A DNA stretch of 42,338 nucleotides, taken from contig LBRD01000001.1 in assembly GCA_000991245.1 (NCBI GenBank), positions 135,467-177,804 on the forward strand, read 5' to 3'. Under the pieces are notes generated by a model. The model was not told the origin of the DNA. It searched no databases and saw nothing but the letters and a program-made list of their open reading frames with translations. Both the position numbers and the translations under genes were made by a program. This document shows positions 15,919 to 42,236 of this stretch, piece by piece; the stretch's first letter is position 1, and each line of letters begins with the position of its first letter. The DNA comes from Parcubacteria group bacterium GW2011_GWC1_36_108 (lineage in GTDB: Bacteria > Patescibacteriota > Minisyncoccia > Moranbacterales > GWC2-37-73).

Positions 15919-18876
15919 TCATCTTTTAATAGAAATTACTAGCACTTTTTCATCCAATTTAAGCTCTTTAGCCAAATCAGCATCTTGGCAAAATCCTTCA
16001 GTAATGGCATCAGCAAGGGTTTCTTTGGCAATTAAGGCATTAAATTTCTCAAGTTCTTCCGATTTTCCATTATAGCACACTTTGATGCGATTGTCAACAT
16101 CATAGCCTGCTTCTTTACGCATCTCTTGGATGTGCCGAACTATTTCTCGCGCCACTCCCTCTTGAGCCAATTCTTCAGTTATCTCAACATCCAAAATAAT
16201 ATTATCCTGCTGATTTTCATCAACAAGAATTTCTTTCACATTAAGTTCTTCCTTAATTATTTCTGCAAGTTCATCAAGAATAACTTCCTTGATTGTCACT
16301 TTTGCAAGCGGTTGACGAACTTTAATTTTAGCTTGAGAGCGAAGTTGCAAACCTTGAGTCACAATCTCACGAACACTGTGCATTTGATCATTCAAAAGCT
16401 CATCGACGTGATGATAATCTCCCGTCGGCAAATCAGCCAAATGCACAGACTCCTTGCCAGCCTGCCCGCCGGAGCTTTGCGAAGGCTGGGTCAGATTTTT
16501 ATAAATTTCTTCAGCGATAAAAGGTGAAAACGGTGCCATCATTTTAGCCAGTGTCACAAGCACGTGATGAAGCGTTGCATATGCTTCATTTTTGTCGCCA
16601 TCATTTTCTGATTTCCAAAAACGCTTGCGCGATCTTCGAACATACCAGTTTGACATATCATCAATAAATTTTGGAAATGCTCGAGCAGCTCGATGCAATT
16701 CATAATTTTCCATTCCACTGTGAACTGCTATCACCAAGGTGTTAAGTTCAGAAAGAATCCATCGATCCAACAAATTTGTTGCGGTTGAATGCTGAAATTG
16801 ATCATTATGTTCCCACTTATCAATATTAGCGTACAGCACAAAAAAGGAATACGAATTCCAAAGCATTCGCATCATTCCTCGCACAATTTCCGCCACATCT
16901 TTTTCAGAAAAATTCAAGTTTTGCGCAGCCACTACTGGCGAGCTCATTAGATAAAATCTGATCGAATCCGCACCATATTTATCAAGCATGAGTTGTGGAT
17001 CAGGATAATTTGAAAAACGTTTACTCATTTTCTTTCCATCCTCTGCCAAAACTGTTCCGTTCACAATTACATTTTTAAACGCTGGTGCTTTTTTAACTGC
17101 ACTGGCAATAATATGCAAATAATAAAACCAGGCACGTGTTTGATCTACGCCCTCCGCAATAAAATCAGCTGGAAAATTATTTTCAAATTGCTCAGCATTT
17201 TCAAAAGGATAATGCTGTTGAGCATACGGCATTGAGCCAGAATCAAACCAAGTATCCAACACGTCTGGGATGCGATGCATATCCTGCCCGCAAGCATCAC
17301 ATTTAAGCACAATTTTATCAACAATATGTTTATGCAAATCTGTTATTTTTTCACCGCTAGCAGCTTCCAGTTCCATTACACTGCCAAAAACTTTTTGTTC
17401 GCCACATTCGCATTTCCAAATTGGTATTACAGAAGCCCAAAAACGCTGACGCGAAATTGACCAATCACGCGCACCTTCAAGCCATTTTCCAAAGCGCCCC
17501 TCTTTTATGTGCTGCGGAGACCACTTGATTTCCTTAGCCAAATCAAGTGCATCTGATTTTATATCAGCAACTTTAACAAACCAAGAACTAGTTGCATAAT
17601 TCATCAGTGGAGTGTCACATCTCCAACAATGAGGATAACTATGTTCGTATTTTTCTTTTGCAAAAAGAGTTCCATTTTTGGCTAAAAATTTAATAATTTC
17701 CACATCAGTCGCAGTTCTATCATCGGTTGGTTTTATATGCATTCCAGCAAATTCTCCCGCCTCTTTTTTTATAATTCCATCCATTCCCACATGTTGAACA
17801 AATGGCAAATTCTTTTCTTTACCCAAATTCAAATCATCTTCACCGAATGCTGGAGCAATATGAACAACACCAGTTCCATCCTCAGCACCCACAAAATCGC
17901 CGCCTACAACTTTCCAACCATTTTCAAAATTTTCAATATCAGATTTTGCATAATAGTCAAAAACTGGTTTATATTTCTTACCAATAAGCTGCGAACCTAA
18001 AACTTCGCGTACAATTTCAATTTTTTTATCCTTAAACAAATCACTCGCTCTATCTTTGGCTACAATAAAAATTTCTTCTGAAAATGTTCCATCCTTTTCC
18101 AAATTTGTTGCCTGCCTGTCCGGTAGGCAGGTTTCTACATATACATAATTCATCTCTGGATTAACCGCTAGAGCAACATTCCCAATCAGTGTCCATGGTG
18201 TTGTCGTCCAGGCCAAAATAGAAGTTCCAGGTTCATCAACAAGTTCAAACTTTGCAATAACAGACAAATCTTTAACATCAATATAACCCTCACTAACTTC
18301 TTGTTGAGAAAGAGTAGTTTCGCAGCGTGGACAAACATGCATTGAGCGATAGCCTTCATAAATAAGACCCTTATTCCAAAGTTCTTTAAAAACCCACCAT
18401 ACTGATTCCATATATGGCAAATCCATCGTCTTATATGCATTATCCATATCAGCCCAACGTCCCAAACGATTAATAACAACTTTCCAAACATCTACATATT
18501 CCAAAACTTTGCTACGACAAAGTTCGTTAAATTTTTCCACGCCTAATTTTTCAATTTCACTTTTAGCTTTTGAGCCTAATTCTTTTTCAACGATATTTTC
18601 AATTGGAAGTCCATGACAATCCCACCCCCATTTTCTTTCCACGTAAAAACCACGCATCGTCCAATAGCGCGGCACCACATCTTTCATTGTTGAAGCAACC
18701 AAGTGCCCGTAATGAGGTGTACCTGTTGCAAAAGGTGGTCCATCATAAAAAGTGTATTTCTGCGAGTCCTTACGAATTTCCAAAGATTTTTCAAATATTT
18801 TCTCCTGAGCCCAAAATTTTAAAATTTCTTCTTCCATCTTCGGGAACGATTGTTTTGGATCAACTTTCTTAAACAT
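15919..18876 (-). CDS. ileS: Isoleucyl-tRNA synthetase (type 2-like, no C-terminal zinc-finger tail seen)
   Basis: 985 aa with the HIGH region PHYGHLV, KMSKRFSNY (KMSKS) and an editing-domain WTTTPWT motif. Confidence 0.97.
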   Translation of the reverse strand: MFKKVDPKQSFPKMEEEILKFWAQEKIFEKSLEIRKDSQKYTFYDGPPFATGTPHYGHLVASTMKDVVPRYWTMRGFYVERKWGWDCHGLPIENIVEKELGSKAKSEIEKLGVEKFNELCRSKVLEYVDVWKVVINRLGRWADMDNAYKTMDLPYMESVWWVFKELWNKGLIYEGYRSMHVCPRCETTLSQQEVSEGYIDVKDLSVIAKFELVDEPGTSILAWTTTPWTLIGNVALAVNPEMNYVYVETCLPDRQATNLEKDGTFSEEIFIVAKDRASDLFKDKKIEIVREVLGSQLIGKKYKPVFDYYAKSDIENFENGWKVVGGDFVGAEDGTGVVHIAPAFGEDDLNLGKEKNLPFVQHVGMDGIIKKEAGEFAGMHIKPTDDRTATDVEIIKFLAKNGTLFAKEKYEHSYPHCWRCDTPLMNYATSSWFVKVADIKSDALDLAKEIKWSPQHIKEGRFGKWLEGARDWSISRQRFWASVIPIWKCECGEQKVFGSVMELEAASGEKITDLHKHIVDKIVLKCDACGQDMHRIPDVLDTWFDSGSMPYAQQHYPFENAEQFENNFPADFIAEGVDQTRAWFYYLHIIASAVKKAPAFKNVIVNGTVLAEDGKKMSKRFSNYPDPQLMLDKYGADSIRFYLMSSPVVAAQNLNFSEKDVAEIVRGMMRMLWNSYSFFVLYANIDKWEHNDQFQHSTATNLLDRWILSELNTLVIAVHSGMENYELHRAARAFPKFIDDMSNWYVRRSRKRFWKSENDGDKNEAYATLHHVLVTLAKMMAPFSPFIAEEIYKNLTQPSQSSGGQAGKESVHLADLPTGDYHHVDELLNDQMHSVREIVTQGLQLRSQAKIKVRQPLAKVTIKEVILDELAEIIKEELNVKEILVDENQQDNIILDVEITEELAQEGVAREIVRHIQEMRKEAGYDVDNRIKVCYNGKSEELEKFNALIAKETLADAITEGFCQDADLAKELKLDEKVLVISIKR
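18111..18131. repeat. 21-nt GC-rich palindromic mini-element inside ileS
   Basis: cctgcctgtccggtaggcagg forms a 6-bp CCTGCC/GGCAGG stem with a 9-nt loop. It is identical to 33170-33190 in uvrC, and the identity extends to 24 nt with the following ttt. Confidence 0.9.
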
Positions 18877-23773: not shown

Positions 23774-26566
23774 TTACAAGTATTTCGCAGTCCAACTCTT
23801 CTTATCTTTTTTTAATTGATCTGGCGTACCAGCAAAAGTAAGATAACCACCAAGGTCGCCACCATCCGGTCCAAGCTCAATCACCCAATCAGCATCGCGC
23901 ACCACATCAAGATTGTGTTCAACCACAATCACAGTATTTCCTTTATCAACCAATGCATTAAGAACACTCAACAATTTTCTAATGTCATCAAAATGAAGTC
24001 CTGCGGTTGGTTCATCCAAAATATACAAAGTACTGCCAGTTGATTTTCGCGCAAGCTCAGTGGCAAGCTTAATACGTTGAGCTTCTCCACCAGAAAGATT
24101 TGTTGCACTTTGACCAAGTTTCAAATATCCAAGTCCAACATCTTCCATAGTTTTAAGTTTTTCAGCAATAAGCGGATGCCTTGCAAAAAATCGCAGTGCT
24201 AAACGCACATCCATATCCAAAATCTGCGCCACGTTAAAACCTTTGTATTCTATTTCAAGAGTTTTTTTGCTAAATCTTGTTCCTCCACAAGCTTCACATT
24301 TCACATACATATCAGGCAAAAGATGCATTTCTATTTTCTTTGAACCTTCACCTTGGCACACTTCGCAGCGCCCACCTTTCATATTAAAACTAAAGCGACT
24401 AGCAGTATAATTTCTGTTCTTTGCCTCCTCCACGCCAGCAAACAAATCGCGAATATGTGAAAACACTCCGGTATAAGTTGCTGCATTTGAGCGCGGGGTG
24501 CGTCCGATTGGATTTTGATTAATACTGATAACCTTTTTAATATGCTCAAATCCTTTGATTTTTTTGTGCTTGCCAGGAAGATCTCGTGTGTTATAAAAAT
24601 GTCGCGATAATGCTTTGGCTAAAATATTTTTTACCAAAGTTGATTTTCCACTGCCTGAAACTCCACAAATAACCACAAATTTTTCCAATGGAATACTGAT
24701 ATCAACTTTTTTCAAATTGTTTTCTTCTGCCCCGAGAATTTCAATGAACTTACCATTTCCACTTCGGTTTTTTTTCTTTTCTGAAACTTTTTTCTTTTTA
24801 GATATATATTGTGCGGTAAGATTTTTAGATTTAATAAGTTGATTATAATCTCCTTCAAAAACTACGATCCCACCTTCTTCTCCTGCCCCCGGACCCATAT
24901 CAACAATCCAGTCAGCAGCTTTAATAATGCTTTCATCGTGCTCAACCACAATCAGGGAATTGCCAACATTTTGCAGGGCTTTAATAGTATTAATAAGTTT
25001 TTCCGTGTCTCGAGAATGAAGTCCAATGGAAGGTTCATCTAAAACATACACAATCCCCATCAATTGAGAATTTAACTGTGCGGCCAAACGAATACGCTGA
25101 GCCTCGCCACCAGAAATTGTTTGTGCAGATCGTCCCAAATTTAAATATTCCAACCCAACATTTTCAAGAGCACTAAGACGCTGCAAAATTTCTCGCACAA
25201 TCGGTTTACCTATACTTTTTTCCTGTGTTGTTTGAACCCAATTTTCAACATCCTCAAAAAATTCTCGCAGATGGGTTATACTCATTGAAACCATCACGTC
25301 TATTGTTTTTCCTTGAACTTCCACTGCCAAAAATTCTTTCTTAAGACGCTTGCCATCGCAAGATGGACAAGTATGCGCAGTCATATATTTTTCAATTTCA
25401 CTGCGCACATAATCAGATTTTGTTTCTTGATATTTTTTTTCTAATGCCGGAATTACGCCTTCAAATCCATCATTACCATAAAGCACAATTTTCAAATTTT
25501 GCTCGGATAATTTTTTGACCGGCACGTTCATTGAAAATTTATATTTTTTTGCAACATCTTTAAGTGTCAAAAGTTGCACACTTTGTCCGCTTATTTTTCC
25601 ACCAGATTTGCTCCAAGGTTGAATTGCACCCTCCATCAAAGAAAGATTTTTATTTGGGATAATAAGTTCTTCATTTACTTTTAAAGTGTAACCTAAACCG
25701 GAGCACAAATCGCATGCTCCTTCTGGACTATTAAAAGAAAAATGTCTTGGTGTCACTTCTTTTATTTTTACCCCGCACTTGGAACAAAAGAAATCTTGAT
25801 TATAGTTACGTTCTTCAATATTATCAAACAAGATCTTCACTGAATTGCCACCATTTTTCATTGCTGTTTCAATAGAATCCAACATTCTTTCCACATCAGG
25901 TTTTTTCTTATCAAGTACAATTCTATCAATAACCATCTCAATATCAGTTTCAATTTCACGTTCACTGAGCATCATAGCTTCCGCCACAGTAAACATTTTT
26001 CCATTGAAACGCACGCGAGCATAGCCCATTTGTGCAATATGTTTTAGCAATTCTTTTCCAACAGCAATATCTTTCGGCTTTGCCAAAATAGCAATTTGCG
26101 TGTGATGAGAAAATGTTAAAATTTCATCCAAAATTTCCTGATTACTTCTTTTTTGCATTGATGTCCCACACTCCGGACAATGCAAAACTCCAATTTTTGC
26201 ATACATAATGCGCAAATAATCATACACCTCAGTCAATGTTCCCACTGTTGAACGAGGTGAACGTGAAATACTTTTTTGATCGATTGAAATCGGAGGAGAA
26301 AGATTTTCAATTTTATCCACATCAGGCTTCACTGATGGATCCAAAAAATTTCGCGCATATGAAGAAAGACCTTCCATATATCGACGGTTTCCTTCGGCAT
26401 AAATAGTATCAAAAGCCAAGGATGATTTCCCAGAACCCGAAAGACCCGTGATTACCACGAACTTATCCCGTGGGATATTAACATCAATGTTTTTCAGGTT
26501 ATTGACTCGCGCACCCTTAATAATAATCTCATTTGTCTGTTTCGAGTTTTCTTTTTTAGAAGCCAT
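23774..26566 (-). CDS. uvrA: Excinuclease ABC subunit A paralogue (the more divergent copy)
   Basis: 930 aa with two ABC modules ([23 protein letters not shown]), LSGGEAQR twice, and zinc modules CPECG...CSKCG and CEVC...CEAC. Confidence 0.93.
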
Positions 26567-29709: not shown

Positions 29710-31557
29710 TTATTCAACGGTTATAGTTCCCCGTGGCACACCCATTGCACAGGTAATCTGATACACACCTTTTTTAGAAGGAGTAAACACCATTTCAATT
29801 TTTTTACCAGCTATAAGTTGAAAGACATCATCACTAAGCCCCGGCAGAGCGACTGTACTCATACAGCCTTGACCATTTTCTTTTACGTCCACTGCAAATT
29901 TGACTGGCTGACCGACTTTGACCGTAAAGGTATTGGGCTGCATATCATCATTAAGAGTATAGGAAGTTTTTATCACTTGCTCATCTACTTTTGCAGTGTC
30001 GGATACTGGTGCAATTTCAACCTTTCCTTCAGCAGGAACAACAGGCTTTCCCCCTCCACCACAGCCTCCACAACCTCCTCCAGTCGATCCAGACCCCCCA
30101 GAGCCACAAGTTCCCGCTGCCGCAGAAGCCACCCCTTGAGTCGTTGTGATGTTTGCAGCGTCAACCGAGCTATTCCCTGCCTGTCCCGCAGACGAGTCAT
30201 CCACCACCGTAAACGCTCCAGTGTACATTCCCATAGAACATGAAAATGGAATCTTACCCGTTTCTTTTGGTGTAAATTCAATAACGTTTTCACCTGCTTT
30301 TAAAGTTTTTTGAATTTTCAAACTTGAAACCACAAGACTGCTGGCACAAGAATATGGAGCCTGAGCGTCAATAACCCATTTGACTGGGACACCTTTTTTA
30401 ATCGTGAATTTGTTCGGAGAATATCCACTAGCAATTTCCTTCATCCTTACAACCTGCACGCCGTTTTCCATCGTCACATTAGGATCGCTAACTTGTTTGT
30501 TATTTGTTGTTTGTTGTCTATTGTTTGTTAATATTTGTAGACCAGTTAAATTATAACCATTGGCAATATTAAACATCGCCAAGAATACCACGAGAATTCC
30601 AGCAAATTTGAAAAATCTTCGTGCAAAAATTCCGCGCACCACACTGGCCAAACCACCTACGCCCAAAAGTCCCGGCGCCGTTCCCAGGGCAAAAATTCCC
30701 ATAATCAATGCGCCCTGCGTGAAGCTTCCACTACTCACAGCATAAAGTTGCATCGCTTGCGTGAAACCGCAGGGAAGAAAGAATGTCAGCCCTCCCATAA
30801 TGAATGAATTTTTATGACTATATTCTTTGGTATGATTTTTTATGCCCAAGGCATTGCTAATACTTTTCGGTAAAGTTATTCCACCATTTTCCAAACGGGG
30901 AAAAATTCCGATCAACTTAAGTCCGAGCGACAACATCACAATTCCCACCGCAATCGTCAAAATTCCCAAAGTCACCCCTGACAATTGAAATGAAGATCCA
31001 ATCAAGCCGAGCATTCCACCCAACAAGGCGTAAATCACAATCCTGCCAGCATTGAAAAATAAATGTGGACGAAACTTTTGCGCGGCAGTAGCCTCAGGAT
31101 GTTTCTCGGAATGACGAGCAGAAATTCCCAAAATCAAACCTCCAACCAATGCCATACAAGTTGAAATCCCAGCTGTAATTCCCACCAAAAAAACCACACC
31201 CAAGCTCGATGGATTTGATGCGGAACTTACTCCAATGTCAGCTAGTCCTAAATTTTTTGCAATCAAATAAATACCAAACAGAAACAAAAAAGCGATCCCC
31301 AAATCTTTATATTCATTTATATTCCGACTGAACAACGGTTTTTTTTCTCTCACTCCAACTGTATAACCAGCTTCCCTGATGGCTTTTTCTATTTCCACCA
31401 TACTAGGTTTTTGAGATTCGTAATAAATATCAGCTGTTCCCTTCTTACAATTGACGTCTATTTTTTTGATCTTACTAATTTCAGACAGTTTGTTCTCAAC
31501 AAGAATTTCACAAGACTTGCAATGCATTCCAACAATTGGAACTGTTATTTTTTGCAT
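29710..31557 (-). CDS. Fusion protein: HMA domain, a DsbD_2/TauE-like 6-TM domain, and two cupredoxin_1-like domains
   Basis: 615 aa. GMHCKSCE is at the N-terminus. The membrane core carries STCM and FFLPCGFT motifs. Two C-terminal modules end in FSCSMGMYTG and ITCAMGVPRG. A Gly/Cys linker, TCGSGGSGSTGGGCGGCGGGG, lies between them. Confidence 0.8.
   Translation of the reverse strand: MQKITVPIVGMHCKSCEILVENKLSEISKIKKIDVNCKKGTADIYYESQKPSMVEIEKAIREAGYTVGVREKKPLFSRNINEYKDLGIAFLFLFGIYLIAKNLGLADIGVSSASNPSSLGVVFLVGITAGISTCMALVGGLILGISARHSEKHPEATAAQKFRPHLFFNAGRIVIYALLGGMLGLIGSSFQLSGVTLGILTIAVGIVMLSLGLKLIGIFPRLENGGITLPKSISNALGIKNHTKEYSHKNSFIMGGLTFFLPCGFTQAMQLYAVSSGSFTQGALIMGIFALGTAPGLLGVGGLASVVRGIFARRFFKFAGILVVFLAMFNIANGYNLTGLQILTNNRQQTTNNKQVSDPNVTMENGVQVVRMKEIASGYSPNKFTIKKGVPVKWVIDAQAPYSCASSLVVSSLKIQKTLKAGENVIEFTPKETGKIPFSCSMGMYTGAFTVVDDSSAGQAGNSSVDAANITTTQGVASAAAGTCGSGGSGSTGGGCGGCGGGGKPVVPAEGKVEIAPVSDTAKVDEQVIKTSYTLNDDMQPNTFTVKVGQPVKFAVDVKENGQGCMSTVALPGLSDDVFQLIAGKKIEMVFTPSKKGVYQITCAMGVPRGTITVE
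30493..30541. repeat. Degenerate heptamer array (ttgtttg-type, about 7 units) inside the fusion-protein gene
   Basis: ttgtttg ttatttg ttgtttg ttgtcta ttgtttg ttaatat ttgtaga. It encodes LQILTNNRQQTTNNKQ. Confidence 0.75.
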
Positions 31558-32769: not shown

Positions 32770-34074
32770 TTATTTTAAAGAGTTTTTGCTGCGTAATTTT
32801 CGGTGATAAGAGATTGCAAAACGGTGAGCTTCATCCATAATGAATTTCACGAGATTGTCATCTTGAAGTACATTCACAATTAGTGAATTGGCATTTATTT
32901 GTAGATTAGTATTATATCTAATATCAAGTTTTTTGCGTGTCGGACCTTTTGCTACACCAACAATCCCAACCACTAATCCCAGCTCTTCGTGCAGCAATTT
33001 CTCTGCCATATTAACGTGTCCCTGTCCGCCATCTAGTAAAATCAAATCTGGCATCGCCCAATCATTATTAAATCTTCGCGACAAAACTTCTTTCATCATC
33101 GCCACATCATTACTACCATTTACTGTTTTAATTTTAAACTTACGATATTGAGATTTGTTAGCTTGCCCACCTGCCTGTCCGGTAGGCAGGTTTTCAAAAA
33201 CTACCATTGAGCCAACAGCGTGATCGCCTGAAATATTGGAGATATCATAAGCCTCTATACGGGCAGGCTTTAGCTTATTAGGCGTTAGCTTTTTAGAAAA
33301 TTCAACAGGCTCAAAATCTCTTGTCATCAACGCGACGTCGCGAATATGCTGCAGGGCAAAAATTTTGTTTCGCAAAACTGCCGCTTTTTCAAATTCATTT
33401 TTTTTGGCAAAAGTTTGCATCTCTTTTTCCATTCTTGAAATCAAACTTCTTTTCTTGCCCTGTAAAATCATTTCTATTCCGCGGATATTTTTTTTATAAT
33501 CAACCTTAGAAATAGCATCACTGTACGGTCCAGGACAAAGACCGATTTGAAAATCCAAACATCCCTTTTCAGTTTTTTGTTTACCCGCATGAAAAGGAAA
33601 AATCCTGCGAATAATTTTAAGTGCAATCTGCATCTGTTGCTTGCTCGTATATGGACCGTAAATAGCTTTTAGCTTATAACTTTTAGCTTCTAGCTTTTCA
33701 AGATCAATATCGGTTTTCCTAAAAATCAAAAATTTTGGAAATTCTTCTTTAGTTACAACAAAATAAGAAAATGATTTATCATCCTTTTCCAAGGTATTAT
33801 ATTTCGGCTGATGTTTTTTAATTAGATTGCTTTCCAAAATCAAAGCCTCCAGCACTGAATCAGTTTGCTCAAAATCAATGTCAGCCACTTGAACCACCAT
33901 CAAACCAATCCACTCACTTCTGCCTACCACAATATCCCCTCGAAAATACGATCCCACGCGGCTTTTAAGATTAGTCGCCTTACCAATATACAAAATCTTG
34001 CCATTTTGATCACGGAAAAAATACACCCCCGGCGTTATAGGCAATTCTTTAATTTTATCGCTTATTATTGACAT
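32770..34074 (-). CDS. uvrC: Excinuclease ABC subunit C (short form, 434 aa)
   Basis: It has an N-terminal GIY-YIG (PGVYFFRDQNGKILYIGKATNLKSR), a UVR-like helix, and a central endonuclease region (IEAYDISNISG...YRKFKIK). Confidence 0.93.
   Translation of the reverse strand: MSIISDKIKELPITPGVYFFRDQNGKILYIGKATNLKSRVGSYFRGDIVVGRSEWIGLMVVQVADIDFEQTDSVLEALILESNLIKKHQPKYNTLEKDDKSFSYFVVTKEEFPKFLIFRKTDIDLEKLEAKSYKLKAIYGPYTSKQQMQIALKIIRRIFPFHAGKQKTEKGCLDFQIGLCPGPYSDAISKVDYKKNIRGIEMILQGKKRSLISRMEKEMQTFAKKNEFEKAAVLRNKIFALQHIRDVALMTRDFEPVEFSKKLTPNKLKPARIEAYDISNISGDHAVGSMVVFENLPTGQAGGQANKSQYRKFKIKTVNGSNDVAMMKEVLSRRFNNDWAMPDLILLDGGQGHVNMAEKLLHEELGLVVGIVGVAKGPTRKKLDIRYNTNLQINANSLIVNVLQDDNLVKFIMDEAHRFAISYHRKLRSKNSLK
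33170..33190. repeat. 21-nt GC-rich palindromic mini-element inside uvrC
   Basis: cctgcctgtccggtaggcagg, identical to 18111-18131. Here it encodes LPTGQAG, a different frame from ileS. Confidence 0.9.
33664..33698. repeat. Degenerate heptamer array (agctttt-type, 5 units) inside uvrC
   Basis: agctttt agcttat aactttt agcttct agctttt. It encodes EKLEAKSYKLKA. Confidence 0.8.
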
Positions 34075-34610: not shown

Positions 34611-37541
34611 CTAAGTTATACTCTTCGGCTTCAAAACCTGCCGCAGATATTTGGCGGTGTAACTTTCTTTGTAATATTTGATAACTTCTTCTGGTGGACC
34701 CGTTACGACAATTTTTCCACCGCCATCGCCACCTTCAGGTCCCATATCAATAATCCAATCTGCCGTTTTAATCACGTCCATATTGTGTTCAATAACAACC
34801 ACGGTATTTCCTGCATCAACAAGACGATTGAGCACGGTTAAAAGTTTTTTAATATCATCAAAATGAAGACCGGTGGTTGGTTCATCTAAAATATACAAAG
34901 TGTCTCCTGTTGCGCGACGAGAAAGTTCCGAGGCAAGTTTTATTCTTTGCGCTTCGCCTCCAGAAAGGGTGGTTGCGCTTTGTCCAAGTTCAATGTACCC
35001 CAAGCCAACTTCTTCGAGGACTTTTAACGGTTCATAAATTTTTGAAAGTGCACCAAAAAATTCCACACCTTCTGAAACTGTCATCGCTAGCACTTCAGAA
35101 ATATTCTTGCCTTTATATTTAACTTGTAAAGTCTCACTATTATATCTTTTGCCACTACAAACATCGCACGGCAAATAAACGTCAGGCATAAATTGCATTT
35201 CGATTTTAAGATATCCTTCACCACTGCAATTGTCGCAACGTCCGCCAGCCACATTGAATGAAAATCTACCCGGACCATATCCTCTAAGCTTAGCATCTTT
35301 TGTCTGCGCAAACAGTTCGCGAATATGAGTGAAAAGACCAGTGTAAGTGGCAGGATTTGAGCGCGGCGTACGACCAATCGGAGATTGATCAATCATAATA
35401 ACTTTATTGATATTTTCGATTCCAATAATTTCATTATGTTTCGCAGGCACATCAAGTGCACGATGCAATTTGTTGGCCAATGCCTTGTACAAAGTTTCTT
35501 CTACCAATGTTGATTTTCCACTGCCAGAAACTCCAGTAACACAAGTAAAAACCTTAAGTGGAAATTCCACTGTCACATTTTTAAGATTATGTTCACTTGC
35601 TCCACGCACCGTGATGCTTCTTTTTCTTTTCATTTGCCTTCTAAATTTTGGAATTTCAATTTCAAGCTCGTGGCGTAAATATTTTCCCGTCAATGATTTT
35701 GGATTATTAATAACATCTTGGGGCAATCCTTGTGCCACAATCTCGCCACCATGCTTTCCAGCTCCTGGTCCAATATCCACCAACCAATCAGCAGAGCGCA
35801 TCATTTCCTCGTCATGTTCAATCACAATCAAGGTATTACCTATTTGTTGTAGTTGTCTTAATGTTTCAATAAGTTTCGCATTATCACGAGCATGTAGTCC
35901 AATAGAAGGCTCATCTAAGATATATAAAACTCCAACCAATTGTGATCCAATTTGAGATGCTAAACGTATTCTCTGCGATTCTCCACCAGACAAAGAATAT
36001 GCTGCTCGACCAAGAGTCAGATAATCCAAACCAACATTATTCAAGAAAACTAAGCGCGCAACAATTTCTTTTAAAATTCTACCAGCAATCAATTCCTCTC
36101 TGGTAGTTATTTTTAAATTTTTGAAAAATTCTATACATTGCCAAATACTAAGCGCTGAAATTTCATAAATATTTTTACCCCCAACACTAACAAGCAAGAC
36201 ATCACTTTTATATCTTGTTCCCTTGCAAGTCGAACAAGGTTTTTGCGACATATATTTTTCAATGTCAGTGCGCACTGCATCAGAAGTTGTCGTGCGATAT
36301 CTTTCCTGTAACCACGCCACCACACCCTTCCAACGCACATTATAATGACCGCTGCCACTTTTGAAGTGATATTTAACTTTTATCAAATCCTCATCCTCAG
36401 TTCCATACAACAAAATATCAATTTTATCTTTTGATAAATCCCGAAGTCTTTTATTATCTGGAATACTGTAATATTGCGCAACAGCCTTAAGTACTGTTCC
36501 TTGATAGTTATTAGGTTTAAAACTCCAAGGCATAATAGCTCCTTCACCGATAGTTTTGTTTAGATCTGGCATAACACGCGCAGGATCAATTTCTTTTTTC
36601 ATACCCAATCCTTCGCAACCTTCACAAGCGCCATAGGGGGAATTAAAAGAAAAAAGACGCGGCTCCATTTCAGGAAATTCAATATCATGAATAGGACAAG
36701 ATAAATTCTGATTAAAAATCTGCTCTACTGCACATATATCATCAACTTTTTTATTTTTTGAAATTTTAGATTTTAATCCTAATTCCTCATTCCTAATTCC
36801 TAATTTCTGTCCTATGCATTTTACCTTCACAATCCCGTGCGAAAGTCTGAGTGCTTTTTCAACTCCTTCAAAAATTCTACTGAGATTTTCTTCATTAACA
36901 GCAATATTGTCAACAATAATATCAATGCTGTGTTTATTATATCTCCCTAATTTTATATCTTTAAAGTTTTCTAATCTTTCCAATTTTCCATCCACAATTG
37001 CCTCTGAATAACCACGTTTCCACATATCATCCAACATAGATAAGTATTCACCTTTTCTTTCGCGTACAATTGGCGAAGAAATTTCAATTATTTGCGATTT
37101 GCTTTTTCCACCCATGTCCAAAATTCTGTCCACAATTTCATCAGTGGAAAGTTTTGAAATTTCTCGTCCGCAAATACTACAATGAGGTATCCCGACTTTA
37201 GCAAAAAGAAGTCTTAAATAATCATGAATCTCAGTGACTGTCCCAACAGTTGATCGCGGATTATGAGAAGTCGATTTTTGATCTATAGAAATAGCTGGCG
37301 AAAGTCCCTGGATATAATCAACATCAGGTTTATCCATTTGCCCTAAAAATTGTCTGGCATAACTTGATAAACTTTCCAGATATCGTCTTTGTCCTTCAGC
37401 AAAAATAGTATCGAATGCCAAAGTTGATTTTCCGCTCCCTGAAAGACCTGTAAAAACAATGAATTTGTTCCTAGGCAATTCCAGATCAATATTTTTTAGG
37501 TTATGCTCACGCGCACCCTTGATGATTATTTTATCTTCCAT
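34611..37541 (-). CDS. uvrA: Excinuclease ABC subunit A (the canonical-looking copy)
   Basis: The start at M51 of the track ORF (MEDKIIIKGAREHNLKNI) gives 976 aa. AEGQRRYLESLSSYARQFLGQMDKPDVDYIQGLSPAISIDQKS is close to the classical UvrA pattern. Two ABC modules and the zinc motifs are present. Confidence 0.95.
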   Translation of the reverse strand: MEDKIIIKGAREHNLKNIDLELPRNKFIVFTGLSGSGKSTLAFDTIFAEGQRRYLESLSSYARQFLGQMDKPDVDYIQGLSPAISIDQKSTSHNPRSTVGTVTEIHDYLRLLFAKVGIPHCSICGREISKLSTDEIVDRILDMGGKSKSQIIEISSPIVRERKGEYLSMLDDMWKRGYSEAIVDGKLERLENFKDIKLGRYNKHSIDIIVDNIAVNEENLSRIFEGVEKALRLSHGIVKVKCIGQKLGIRNEELGLKSKISKNKKVDDICAVEQIFNQNLSCPIHDIEFPEMEPRLFSFNSPYGACEGCEGLGMKKEIDPARVMPDLNKTIGEGAIMPWSFKPNNYQGTVLKAVAQYYSIPDNKRLRDLSKDKIDILLYGTEDEDLIKVKYHFKSGSGHYNVRWKGVVAWLQERYRTTTSDAVRTDIEKYMSQKPCSTCKGTRYKSDVLLVSVGGKNIYEISALSIWQCIEFFKNLKITTREELIAGRILKEIVARLVFLNNVGLDYLTLGRAAYSLSGGESQRIRLASQIGSQLVGVLYILDEPSIGLHARDNAKLIETLRQLQQIGNTLIVIEHDEEMMRSADWLVDIGPGAGKHGGEIVAQGLPQDVINNPKSLTGKYLRHELEIEIPKFRRQMKRKRSITVRGASEHNLKNVTVEFPLKVFTCVTGVSGSGKSTLVEETLYKALANKLHRALDVPAKHNEIIGIENINKVIMIDQSPIGRTPRSNPATYTGLFTHIRELFAQTKDAKLRGYGPGRFSFNVAGGRCDNCSGEGYLKIEMQFMPDVYLPCDVCSGKRYNSETLQVKYKGKNISEVLAMTVSEGVEFFGALSKIYEPLKVLEEVGLGYIELGQSATTLSGGEAQRIKLASELSRRATGDTLYILDEPTTGLHFDDIKKLLTVLNRLVDAGNTVVVIEHNMDVIKTADWIIDMGPEGGDGGGKIVVTGPPEEVIKYYKESYTAKYLRQVLKPKSIT
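36776..36810. repeat. Degenerate heptamer array (attccta-type, 5 units) inside uvrA2
   Basis: aatccta attcctc attccta attccta atttctg. It encodes QKLGIRNEELGL. Confidence 0.8.
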
Positions 37542-37622
37542 AAATTTTATTAGAAATGCAAAAACCTTCCCCTTTTGAGGTACTAAAATTACTACGCTAA
37601 ACCATTCTATTACTTTCCATAC

Positions 37623-37651
37623 ACTATACGACAAAGCTTCAAATTTATCAA
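37623..37651 (-). promoter_or_regulatory. Candidate sigma-70 promoter of uvrA2
   Basis: The minus strand reads TTGATA (37651-37646), a 17-nt spacer, then TATAGT (37628-37623), about 80 nt upstream of the ATG at 37541. Confidence 0.5.
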
Positions 37652-37654
37652 TAC

Positions 37655-37839
37655 AAAAAGCAAGGGCATGAAATTTACACCGTTGTGACATGCGTAGGTA
37701 AAATACAAGCGATGAGCGTTAAAAAATTTTGAAACGTAGCGCCCGCCAGTAGGCGTAGGCGCGCAGTGTAAATTTTAGCGAAGAGTGAAGTATTTGCCCC
37801 AGCAATGAGCAAGGTGTAAATTTTATGCCCTTGCTTTTT
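37655..37839. repeat. 27-bp inverted repeats (26 of 27 match) bracketing 131 bp with an internal GC-rich hairpin. Either MITE-like or a structured element.
   Basis: The left arm aaaaagcaagggcatgaaatttacacc (37655-37681) faces the right arm ggtgtaaattttatgcccttgcttttt (37813-37839). A third partial copy, agtgtaaatttta, is at 37765-37777. An internal hairpin gcgcc-cgcc-agta-ggcg-ta-ggcgc lies at about 37740-37764. Confidence 0.7.
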
Positions 37840-41754: not shown

Positions 41755-42236
41755 ACAAAGTTGTTATCTTGCAAAGGAGAAAATAACCATGGAGTGGCCA
41801 ATAGTGTAATTACTCTATTTTATTTCTCAAAAGTCGCTTATCTCATCAAAGGAGGTGCAATATGAAAGAAAGAGGGTTCCAAGACAGAGACCCAACAGAA
41901 GCACGACCCAATGGCGATGGTTAAATTACGAGCTGATTTCCGAGTTGTTATCACTCAAAGGAGGAAACCACTATGCTCAGTGTGCAAATCGTAGCAATCG
42001 CGTAGAACATCGAGCGAGGCAGCTGGAGCCGAGGAGACTGCCAACCAGATTTTATCCATAGCATGGAGGATTGACAGAACCAGCAAATTCATAAGAGGAT
42101 TGCAACACAAGGACATAGCAATATCGGGCGAAACAAGAAGTCGCGAGTATCTGCCTCAACGAAGGCACAGTGCAAAAAACGCGCGCGACAAAAAACTCTG
42201 CCCACTTAAGGCGCTTTCCATTGCGAAAGCGCCTTT
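41755..42236 (+). ncRNA. Candidate novel non-coding or multi-mini-ORF RNA of about 480 nt. Class unknown.
   Basis: It is bounded by the promoter above and an 11-bp GC-rich hairpin at 42208-42235. It is visibly more G+C-rich than its surroundings and has no credible long ORF. It contains three ttatc-N-caaaggag modules, two cat-gaggattg-ca modules and at least 8 GGA motifs. Confidence 0.4.
42208..42235 (+). terminator. Strong hairpin closing the G+C-rich unit (no clean U-run)
   Basis: aaggcgctttc-cattgc-gaaagcgcctt. No T-run follows immediately on plus. On minus, a T-run begins only about 12 nt later. Confidence 0.45.

Follow-up and report, generated by a model that had tools for sequence, protein, structure and literature searches.

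The DNA analysed here, called the window throughout, is a stretch of 42,338 nt from contig LBRD01000001.1 of Parcubacteria group bacterium GW2011_GWC1_36_108 (assembly GCA_000991245.1). Its genes include uvrA, uvrB, uvrC, a second UvrA-like gene and those for RecO, isoleucyl-tRNA synthetase (IleRS, encoded by ileS), ArgRS and a copper ATPase. Two of these genes, ileS and uvrC, carry in frame an exact copy of the same 21-mer, CCTGCCTGTCCGGTAGGCAGG on the plus strand, which we designate E. We conclude with high confidence that E is a mobile insertion element, and we discuss how such a short sequence may move and what happens to it inside protein-coding genes.

Sequence and fold of E

The two copies of E are identical, and the identity extends to 24 nt with the ttt that follows both of them on the 3' side; the base before E is g in ileS and a in uvrC. 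The two genes read the element in different frames and obtain two different peptides. On these points the preliminary description of this DNA was accurate, whereas the fold it gave, a 6-bp stem with a 9-nt loop, needs correction. The hairpin is in fact slightly stronger than was stated there: E is an imperfect palindrome with a 7-bp stem, CCTGCCT/AGGCAGG, and a possible additional G.T pair, so that the loop has 7 nt or 5 nt; CCGG lies at the centre of this loop, and the layout of the element is a 7-nt arm, a 7-nt loop and a 7-nt arm. In uvrC the flanking a and t lengthen the stem to 8 bp. As DNA, E folds at -6.5 kcal/mol (top strand) or -6.1 kcal/mol (bottom strand), and as RNA at -10.6 to -11.7 kcal/mol; five of its six reading frames are open.

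No third match to E with up to three mismatches is present in the window (0 expected from 100 shuffles), an Rfam scan of the window gave no matches, and the window has no general richness in GC-rich hairpins (6 observed, 1-4 in shuffles). As RNA, the loop GUCCGGU has U33, CCG and G37 as in the anticodon arm of tRNA-Arg(CCG). No gene for this tRNA lies in the window or the fetched loci to compare with E, and the idea that E mimics or derives from its anticodon arm was dropped.

Both copies are present in at least five independent assemblies of the same Moranbacteria-like population. Contigs 99.7-100% identical to the window, with E at both sites, come from NCBI (GCA_000991495.1, GCA_003507495.1), ENA (ERZ27254731, ERZ27254733, ERZ909590) and JGI (3300025011, 3300025309, 3300025000). 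Because all these contigs carry both copies, the copies in the window are real and fixed in the population, and the mis-assembly that had been raised as a concern is not borne out. Identical copies of the IleS protein are recorded in 43 blocks of the collection of assemblies; for UvrA the figure is 37.

Insertion sites in UvrC and IleS

The organism is a Moranbacteria-like member of the candidate phyla radiation (CPR): the best homologues of the window UvrC carry the name Moranbacteria, the nearest of them with 78% identity. Aligned with the solved UvrC fragment PDB 3c65, the window protein shows an exact seven-residue gap, VVFEN[LPTGQAG]GQANK against VVFL-------DGKPAK, and 117 of the 120 aligned UvrC homologues are without the seven residues. 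The DNA agrees with the protein. The nearest empty site (homologue P0002, locus L124) reads TTT GAG AAT GGT, whereas the filled sites read GAR AA(C CTG CCT...GCA GG)T GGN, with E in the brackets; exactly 21 nt are gained between AA and T, with no target duplication. In the AlphaFold model of UvrC (mean predicted local distance difference test score, pLDDT, 82), the insert lies in the turn between the strand 285-294 and the next strand, within loop residues 295-303, and pLDDT falls below 50 at 299-302. According to the model, the insert is thus a surface loop, predicted with low confidence, at the turn of a beta-hairpin.

In ileS, E lies within a loop of 16 residues in the CP1/editing region; this loop is lineage-specific and has no counterpart in PDB 8c8u or in the related locus L089. 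The ileS gene of L089 has E at another site, where it is read as PAYRTGR and which is empty in the window, and a Saccharibacteria ileS (L048) has E at a third site. Judged from these alignments, the E segments in ileS and uvrC are insertions. The clean, lineage-specific seven-codon insert with a gapless UvrC remainder, and the surface-loop location expected for it, were therefore well anticipated by the preliminary description.

Two side observations concern these genes and their relatives. The contig of L089 (CAZMNQ010000045.1) is labelled 'uncultured Bdellovibrionales', and it is syntenic with the window ileS region and 70-79% identical to it; it is probably a mis-binned or mislabelled CPR contig. 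The window UvrC has no C-terminal helix-hairpin-helix domain according to Pfam, and since CPR homologues are likewise without it, this looks like a lineage feature and not a truncation.

Table 1. Coordinates of E, its host genes and further features within the window
Feature	Position	Strand	Remarks
E copy 1	18111..18131	+	Exact 21-mer in ileS; gene-sense strand CCTGCCTACCGGACAGGCAGG, read as (T)CLPDRQA
E copy 2	33170..33190	+	Identical 21-mer in uvrC, read as (N)LPTGQAG
ileS, isoleucyl-tRNA synthetase	15919..18876	-	985 aa; E read as ET-CLPDRQA-TN
uvrC	32770..34074	-	434 aa; GIY-YIG, UVR, UvrC_M and RNase H-like domains; E read as FEN-LPTGQAG-GQANK
Possible decayed E	30174..30194	+	16/21 positions match; same frame, SSAGQAG; not established
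GC-rich segment in ileS	16448..16468	-	Read as QPSQSSGGQA(GK); 10-residue insertion
UvrA-like gene	23774..26566		930 aa
UvrA-like gene	34611..37691		1026 aa
Inverted repeat	42208..42235		Perfect 9-bp GC-rich repeat, AAGGCGCTT-N10-AAGCGCCTT, close to window end

Repeated insertion into UvrC

Among the 120 UvrC homologues, LPTGQAG occurs only in the window protein (P0001), P0014 and P0028, in all three at the same nucleotide. At the DNA level the three genes are 21/21 identical in E, 67-83% identical in the 60-nt flanks, no different from the 73-77% over the whole gene, and the third codon positions flanking E are only 39-63% identical. The three proteins do not form a sister group: for each of them, closer relatives lack E, and the clade that unites them comprises 78 sequences, of which 75 are without E. 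Because the carriers are not sisters and E is unchanged while the synonymous sites beside it have diverged, the economical reading is that at least three independent insertions would have occurred in one permissive UvrC turn. In L112/L120, L030/L212 and L131/L137/L139, too, orthologues from different genomes share the position of E, with flanks that are only about 75-85% identical while E is 21/21; one of these genes is a histidine-kinase-like open reading frame (ORF), named by eye.

Invariance within diverged flanks would also be expected if E served its host as a cis-element, such as a protein- or RNA-binding hairpin, an mRNA stabiliser, a pause site, or a methylation or recognition site at CCGG. 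The orthologous sites just described (uvrC, L030/L212, L112/L120), the stem variants with compensatory changes that keep the hairpin, and the fixation of both window copies in the population are all compatible with such a role. However, E is sporadic among close orthologues, since three of 120 UvrC carry it and its site differs in each of three IleS; its locations include genes of any kind, phage structural genes, other repeats and intergenic junk; and nesting, tandems and probable decayed copies are hallmarks of a proliferating element. We therefore give very little weight to a host-serving role.

E is not the only short insert in UvrC. The length of UvrC in Moranbacteria ranges from 416 to 651 aa owing to many short in-frame inserts at a few hot spots of the 120-homologue alignment, and in other homologues the very turn that receives E holds an unrelated palindromic insert family (SAKGGSAFGGE-like). 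The insert families resemble translated DNA repeats: AAESALGGRL, the NANLRI type, WPASTRG, and the E-like LPAGRHG and TLPTGRQ. SAKGGSAFGGE corresponds to a palindrome of the CCGCCAAAGGCGGATCCGCCTTTGGCGG type, ILKQVQDD and GSDLSTSLRYAQDD to hairpins of the GTCATCCTGA...TCAGGATC type, and QNTIYNIQNT to 7-nt tandem repeats. Taken together, these inserts suggest that CPR genes are colonised by a broader population of tiny repeats, among which E stands out by its unusual uniformity.

Distribution across bacteria and viruses

The exact 21-mer was sought in one genome per GTDB species, which gave at least 120 stretches with 131 copies examined, and in metagenomes, which gave at least 120 stretches with 123 copies examined. 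All counts of copies and carriers given below hold among the matches listed, and the tallies by taxon are a rough hand count of the record titles of the genome matches. By this count, about 75 matches are from Bacteroidota, about 25 from CPR/Patescibacteria (many classes), 6-7 from Nitrospirota, three from Ignavibacteriota and about six from Proteobacteria, with one metagenome-assembled genome (MAG) each from Dehalococcoidia (Chloroflexota) and Elusimicrobia. E spans at least six phyla in these matches. The Bacteroidota carriers include six isolates, namely Arenibacter sp. P308M17, Flagellimonas flava, Terrimonas sp. R1, Psychroserpens sp. AS72, Pleomorphovibrio marinus and Labilibacter sediminis.

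A viral collection contributed 15 stretches with 20 copies. The phage contig IMGVR_UViG_3300038551_000082 (28.8 kb, GC about 58%; loci L127, L129 and L135), whose ORFs by eye include terminase, portal, primase-helicase, lysozyme-like and tail proteins, holds at least six exact copies as well as variants, several of them nested; E is always read there as LPTGQAG, in the lysozyme-like protein, in an adjacent protein and in the primase-helicase. One phage site of E is identical across three metagenomes. A BLAST search with a tandem E query found no match among PLSDB plasmids or INPHARED cultured phages. Across the 131 genome, 123 metagenome and 20 viral copies the flanks are unrelated, which means that the unit is only about 21 nt.

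These data bear on two statements of the preliminary description. It presented E as a GC-rich element of an AT-rich genome, which is correct for the window (71% in E, about 36% in the window); the GC content of the loci that carry E, however, ranges from 30 to 70%, with some loci at 60-70%, so that E cannot be described in general as a GC-rich island in AT-rich DNA. It was also unaware of anything equivalent for this kind of genome, a view superseded by the presence of the same 21-mer in many phyla and phages and by published intragenic palindromes (PMC3733652). A search of the literature for the 21-mer as DNA or RNA, for either half of it and for the peptides LPTGQAG, PTGQAG and PAYRTGR found no relevant paper, and keywords gave only general literature on repetitive extragenic palindromic (REP) sequences.

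Reading frame and junctions

When ORFs of at least 150 codons are taken as coding, E lies in coding sequence in 50 of 131 genome copies and 53 of 123 metagenome copies (about 40%), and the regularities described here are found in both samples. About two-thirds of the coding copies are read as LPTGQAG (34/50 in genomes, 36/53 in metagenomes); PAYRTGR accounts for 7 and 9, CLPDRQA for 3 and 1, and the opposite orientation for 6 and 7, respectively. The host ORFs identified by Pfam encode ordinary enzymes, for example IleRS, class II aminoacyl-tRNA synthetase, PheRS, GatB, SHMT, FtsW and UvrD. Outside coding sequence, the orientation of E has no bias relative to the local GC skew (36:35) and a weak bias relative to the neighbouring genes (28:15). 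Because the non-coding copies show no GC-skew bias and only a weak gene-orientation bias, selection acting on the encoded peptide would be the best explanation for the bias of orientation and frame in coding copies, and this in turn implies translation of E. We consider it probable that E is translated and filtered by selection. Conservation had been placed at the DNA level and not at the peptide level: the identity of the copies is indeed one of DNA, but the dominance of the LPTGQAG frame points to selection on the peptide as well.

The junctions are equally regular. The base before E is a purine in 95% of genome copies (G 92, A 30 of 128) and 94% of metagenome copies (G 87, A 29 of 123); the base 3' of E is seldom A, and positions -2 to -10 are near background. 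A direct repeat at the junction is lacking in 93 of 128 copies and is 1 nt long in most others, so there is no target-site duplication (TSD).

It might be asked whether a 21-mer found in so many unrelated assemblies is an adaptor, a spike-in or a mis-join of an assembler at k = 21, since its length equals a common minimum k-mer and it is palindromic. This explanation is effectively refuted. The same sites are obtained from IDBA, SPAdes, MEGAHIT and long-read (Flye-type) assemblies, from isolate genomes and from many independent samples, one phage site having been recovered from three metagenomes; the frame bias and the -1 bias replicate in two collections, whereas an artefact would escape selection; and E is not a perfect palindrome.

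Nested copies, hairpins, heptamer repeats and variants

E inserts into itself. An E inside another E-like sequence is found for 17 of 267 copies, compared with 26 of 5340 random positions (13 times chance), and 15 of these nested copies have the same orientation as the outer copy while 2 are inverted. In all 15 same-orientation nestings the insertion point lies at positions 8-16 of the outer copy. Five further copies form direct head-to-tail tandems. Of the non-coding copies, 16% occupy the loop of a perfect stem of 6 bp or more that is unrelated to E, compared with 5% of random non-coding positions, whereas a looser test (minimum free energy structure, stem of at least 5 bp) gives 12% for both. 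The hairpin-loop preference is real but modest, because only perfect stems of at least 6 bp show it.

E is also found phase-exact between the units of heptanucleotide tandem repeats, in 9 of 270 copies compared with 2 of 2700 controls (45-fold), with no signal at lags 5, 6, 8 and 9. The loci are L017, L023, L061, L072, L151, L199, L208, L247 and L250; their units include TTCTGGG, GATTGCG, TTTGTGG, TTCTGTG and others, and end in G. It is worth considering a mechanism without transposition here, in which a widespread polymerase or reverse transcriptase, working from a short template in a 7-nt register, would add sequence at nicks or 3' ends. This would yield both heptamer tandems and a 7+7+7 hairpin, and the invariance of E would reflect a conserved template and not descent from copy to copy. 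The phase-exact placement of E with silent neighbouring lags, its length of 3 x 7 nt, the existence of head-to-tail tandems that are all direct, the use of the same kinds of UvrC hot spots by heptamer-derived peptides (QNTIYNIQNT-like) and by E, and the identity of the sequence across phyla all accord with it. On the other side, neither such an enzyme nor such a template is seen in the fetched sequence, the other in-frame repeat families of the same genes are 24-30 nt long and not multiples of 7, and the repeats may simply attract E through slipped single-stranded structures. Sub-variants with compensatory stem changes fit descent plus hairpin selection at least equally well. We regard templated addition as improbable.

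These variants appear as bystanders in the fetched loci of different phyla: CCTGCCTGTCCGGCAGGCAGG in four loci and CCTGCCCGTCCGGCAGGCGGG in three, the latter with a compensatory stem change from T7-A15 to C-G. E would accordingly be the commonest, master sequence of a small hairpin family. The window itself may hold older relatives (Table 1). The possible decayed E sits in a variable linker of an HMA/DsbD_2/cupredoxin protein, where the L121 homologue shows a gap of 5 aa. A further GC-rich segment in ileS encodes a 10-residue insertion without which the relative L089 reads T----------GGESV; it shares GQAG with E, about 12 of 21 positions match, and it could be a much-decayed E or belong to another repeat family. 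The inverted repeat near the window end may be a terminator or a different hairpin repeat.

Some further features lie beside copies of E or in the window. In L076 (positions 1-1460; a Paceibacterota MAG), a gene for a 128-aa protein that by eye resembles the four-helix bundle of 23S rRNA intervening sequences is bordered by direct repeats of about 60 nt with one E in each, and a third E follows 370 nt further. In L063 and L098, small DUF559 endonuclease-like proteins (also judged by eye) adjoin E. As partners of E, the four-helix-bundle genes and the probable DUF559-type genes were rejected, since they stand beside few copies and are too rare. The two UvrA-like genes of the window lie near uvrB and uvrC, and the related locus L124 has the same layout.

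Discussion

We propose that E is a minimal non-autonomous mobile hairpin, which integrates without TSD into single-stranded or structured DNA and is translated and selected; taken as a whole, we judge this explanation to stand somewhat better than even. Each new copy would be an exact unit of 21 nt placed 3' of a purine, and the target would not be duplicated. Its integration would be strand-specific and would favour transiently single-stranded or structured DNA, the target spots being the loop of another E, the tips of other hairpins and slipped heptamer repeats; on this targeting and strand specificity our judgement is evenly balanced. Such targets would call for a trans-acting, structure-recognising enzyme that works on single-stranded DNA (ssDNA). 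This enzyme would recognise the hairpin on one strand and join E into ssDNA, for which the nearest known chemistry is that of the HUH/Y1 enzymes of IS200/IS605 elements and of REP sequences with their REP-associated tyrosine transposases (RAYT); this is the most plausible type for the mobilising enzyme, although that the enzyme does belong to it seems to us rather unlikely. As E has the length of seven codons and five of its six frames are open, insertions in surface loops would be tolerated and translated, and selection would then retain mainly the flexible LPTGQAG reading. The inserts in ileS and uvrC of the window are fixed seven-residue loops with no evident function of their own.

Several observations weigh against this proposal. 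First, the window with its flanks of 10 kb each, the 120 genome loci and 20 kb of the E-rich phage contig contain no transposase or other candidate enzyme, and an all-against-all BLASTP comparison of the 120 loci found no gene family enriched beside E. Second, the target is barely defined, consisting of the -1 purine only, and the preference for hairpin loops is modest (odds ratio about 3). IS200/IS605 elements need a target of 4-5 nt and guide sequences beside two subterminal hairpins, and 21 nt cannot hold these hairpins and guides. Third, lagging-strand HUH transposition would predict a bias relative to GC skew, which is not seen in the non-coding copies. Fourth, the identity of the 21-mer across phyla is hard to square with host-specific systems of the REP/RAYT type, and would call for an enzyme that is both strongly conserved and horizontally spread, or else for a different mechanism. 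Finally, no strain-level polymorphism of filled and empty sites was found for the window copies, a metagenome search for an empty-site allele at uvrC having given 0 matches, and current mobility in this organism is not shown.

It is possible, although we hold it doubtful, that E, the heptamer repeats and the tiny hairpins at shared hot spots together represent an undescribed kind of ultra-short, sequence-invariant mobile DNA that crosses phyla by means of widely distributed machinery. This machinery might be a templated insertion in a 7-nt register and not any known transposase, and it would keep introducing seven-residue loops into essential proteins.

If our proposal is true, E is among the smallest mobile elements known, and its unchanged presence in CPR, Bacteroidota, Nitrospirota and viruses implies a very promiscuous horizontal vector or an unrecognised conserved insertion machinery. 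A defined 21-mer together with cultured carriers provides a handle on how REP-like hairpins and in-frame palindromic inserts move. E further illustrates one way in which essential proteins, aminoacyl-tRNA synthetases and UvrC among them, acquire short loops. For the analysis of CPR proteins, it should be considered that E and its relatives inflate and fragment alignments and can be mistaken for lineage-specific protein features.

Among known systems, REP sequences and the REPINs formed by them invite comparison first. Like them, E is a GC-rich imperfect palindrome in the size range of 20-40 nt, inserts without TSD, has some copies in ORFs and shows the population structure of a master sequence with variants. 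Di Nocera et al. (2013, PMC3733652) reported intragenic REPs in genes for DNA repair and for tRNA synthetases, the same kinds of genes as uvrC and ileS here, and E contains the tetranucleotide GTAG. E could thus be an ordinary member of this group, moved by a RAYT encoded elsewhere in each genome, with its ORF copies being intragenic REPs of the known kind. However, REPs are defined by GTAG or CGTC at one terminus (PMC3733652), whereas the GTAG of E is internal (positions 13-16, where loop and stem meet) and its termini, CCTG... and ...CAGG, have no such tag. REPs are mostly extragenic and often form inverted doublets (REPINs, or bacterial interspersed mosaic elements), whereas about 40% of E copies are intragenic, tandems are direct and inverted doublets are lacking, with 2 inverted neighbours among 267 copies. 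REP families are specific to a species or genus, whereas E is not species-specific and is identical over its whole range of phyla. No RAYT was found in the window with 10 kb on either side, in 120 genome loci of 8 kb or in the phage contig, a search of loci and not of whole genomes. We consider ordinary REP/REPIN membership highly improbable.

Miniature inverted-repeat transposable elements (MITEs) differ more plainly: they have terminal inverted repeats around a segment of 50-500 bp and leave a TSD, whereas E is a single 21-nt hairpin with unrelated flanks and leaves none. The IS200/IS605 'peel and paste' elements and their hairpin-only derivatives (palindrome-associated transposable elements, PATEs) have hairpin-defined ends and integrate into ssDNA in a strand-specific manner. 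They resemble E in the absence of target duplication and in the precise gain of the element; they differ in their conserved target of 4-5 nt, compared with the -1 purine of E, in having two different subterminal hairpins instead of one, in their guide tetranucleotides and in their replication-strand bias. With regard to strand specificity of this style, the nested copies of E are largely in the same orientation (15:2), yet the non-coding copies are balanced with respect to GC skew (36:35).

Fungal mitochondria contain mobile GC clusters, double-hairpin elements and 'byp' inserts of 30-55 nt, which are lineage-restricted and some of which are bypassed by the ribosome. These are functional analogues of E, likewise very short GC-rich palindromes that spread within genomes and into coding genes without destroying them, with a mobiliser that is not known; they are organellar, whereas E occurs in bacteria and viruses and, to judge from its frame bias, is translated. 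The cyanobacterial short tandemly repeated repetitive (STRR) sequences are heptanucleotide tandem repeats scattered in genomes, and their origin is not known. E is embedded phase-exactly in 7-nt arrays and is itself 3 x 7 nt, but STRR sequences are not hairpins and are not known to be tied to a 21-nt palindrome, and the link to E is statistical only. Heptamer repeats are discussed in PMC4692102.

A further likeness is to the palindromic elements that the preliminary description had in mind, and its comparison holds for the in-frame insertion into functional proteins. Rickettsia palindromic elements (RPEs; Ogata and Claverie; cited in PMC3733652) are about 100-150 bp long, form the families RPE-1 to RPE-8, occur in Rickettsia only and add 30-50 residues to their host proteins. 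As with E, they are palindromic, lie in frame in functional and often essential proteins as surface segments, and are conserved at the DNA level while being read in different frames. E differs in its 21 nt and seven residues, its occurrence in many phyla and phages, its self-nesting and its one dominant frame; size and taxon set the two apart. In our best reading, E behaves like the RPEs and the intragenic REPs but is a member of neither.

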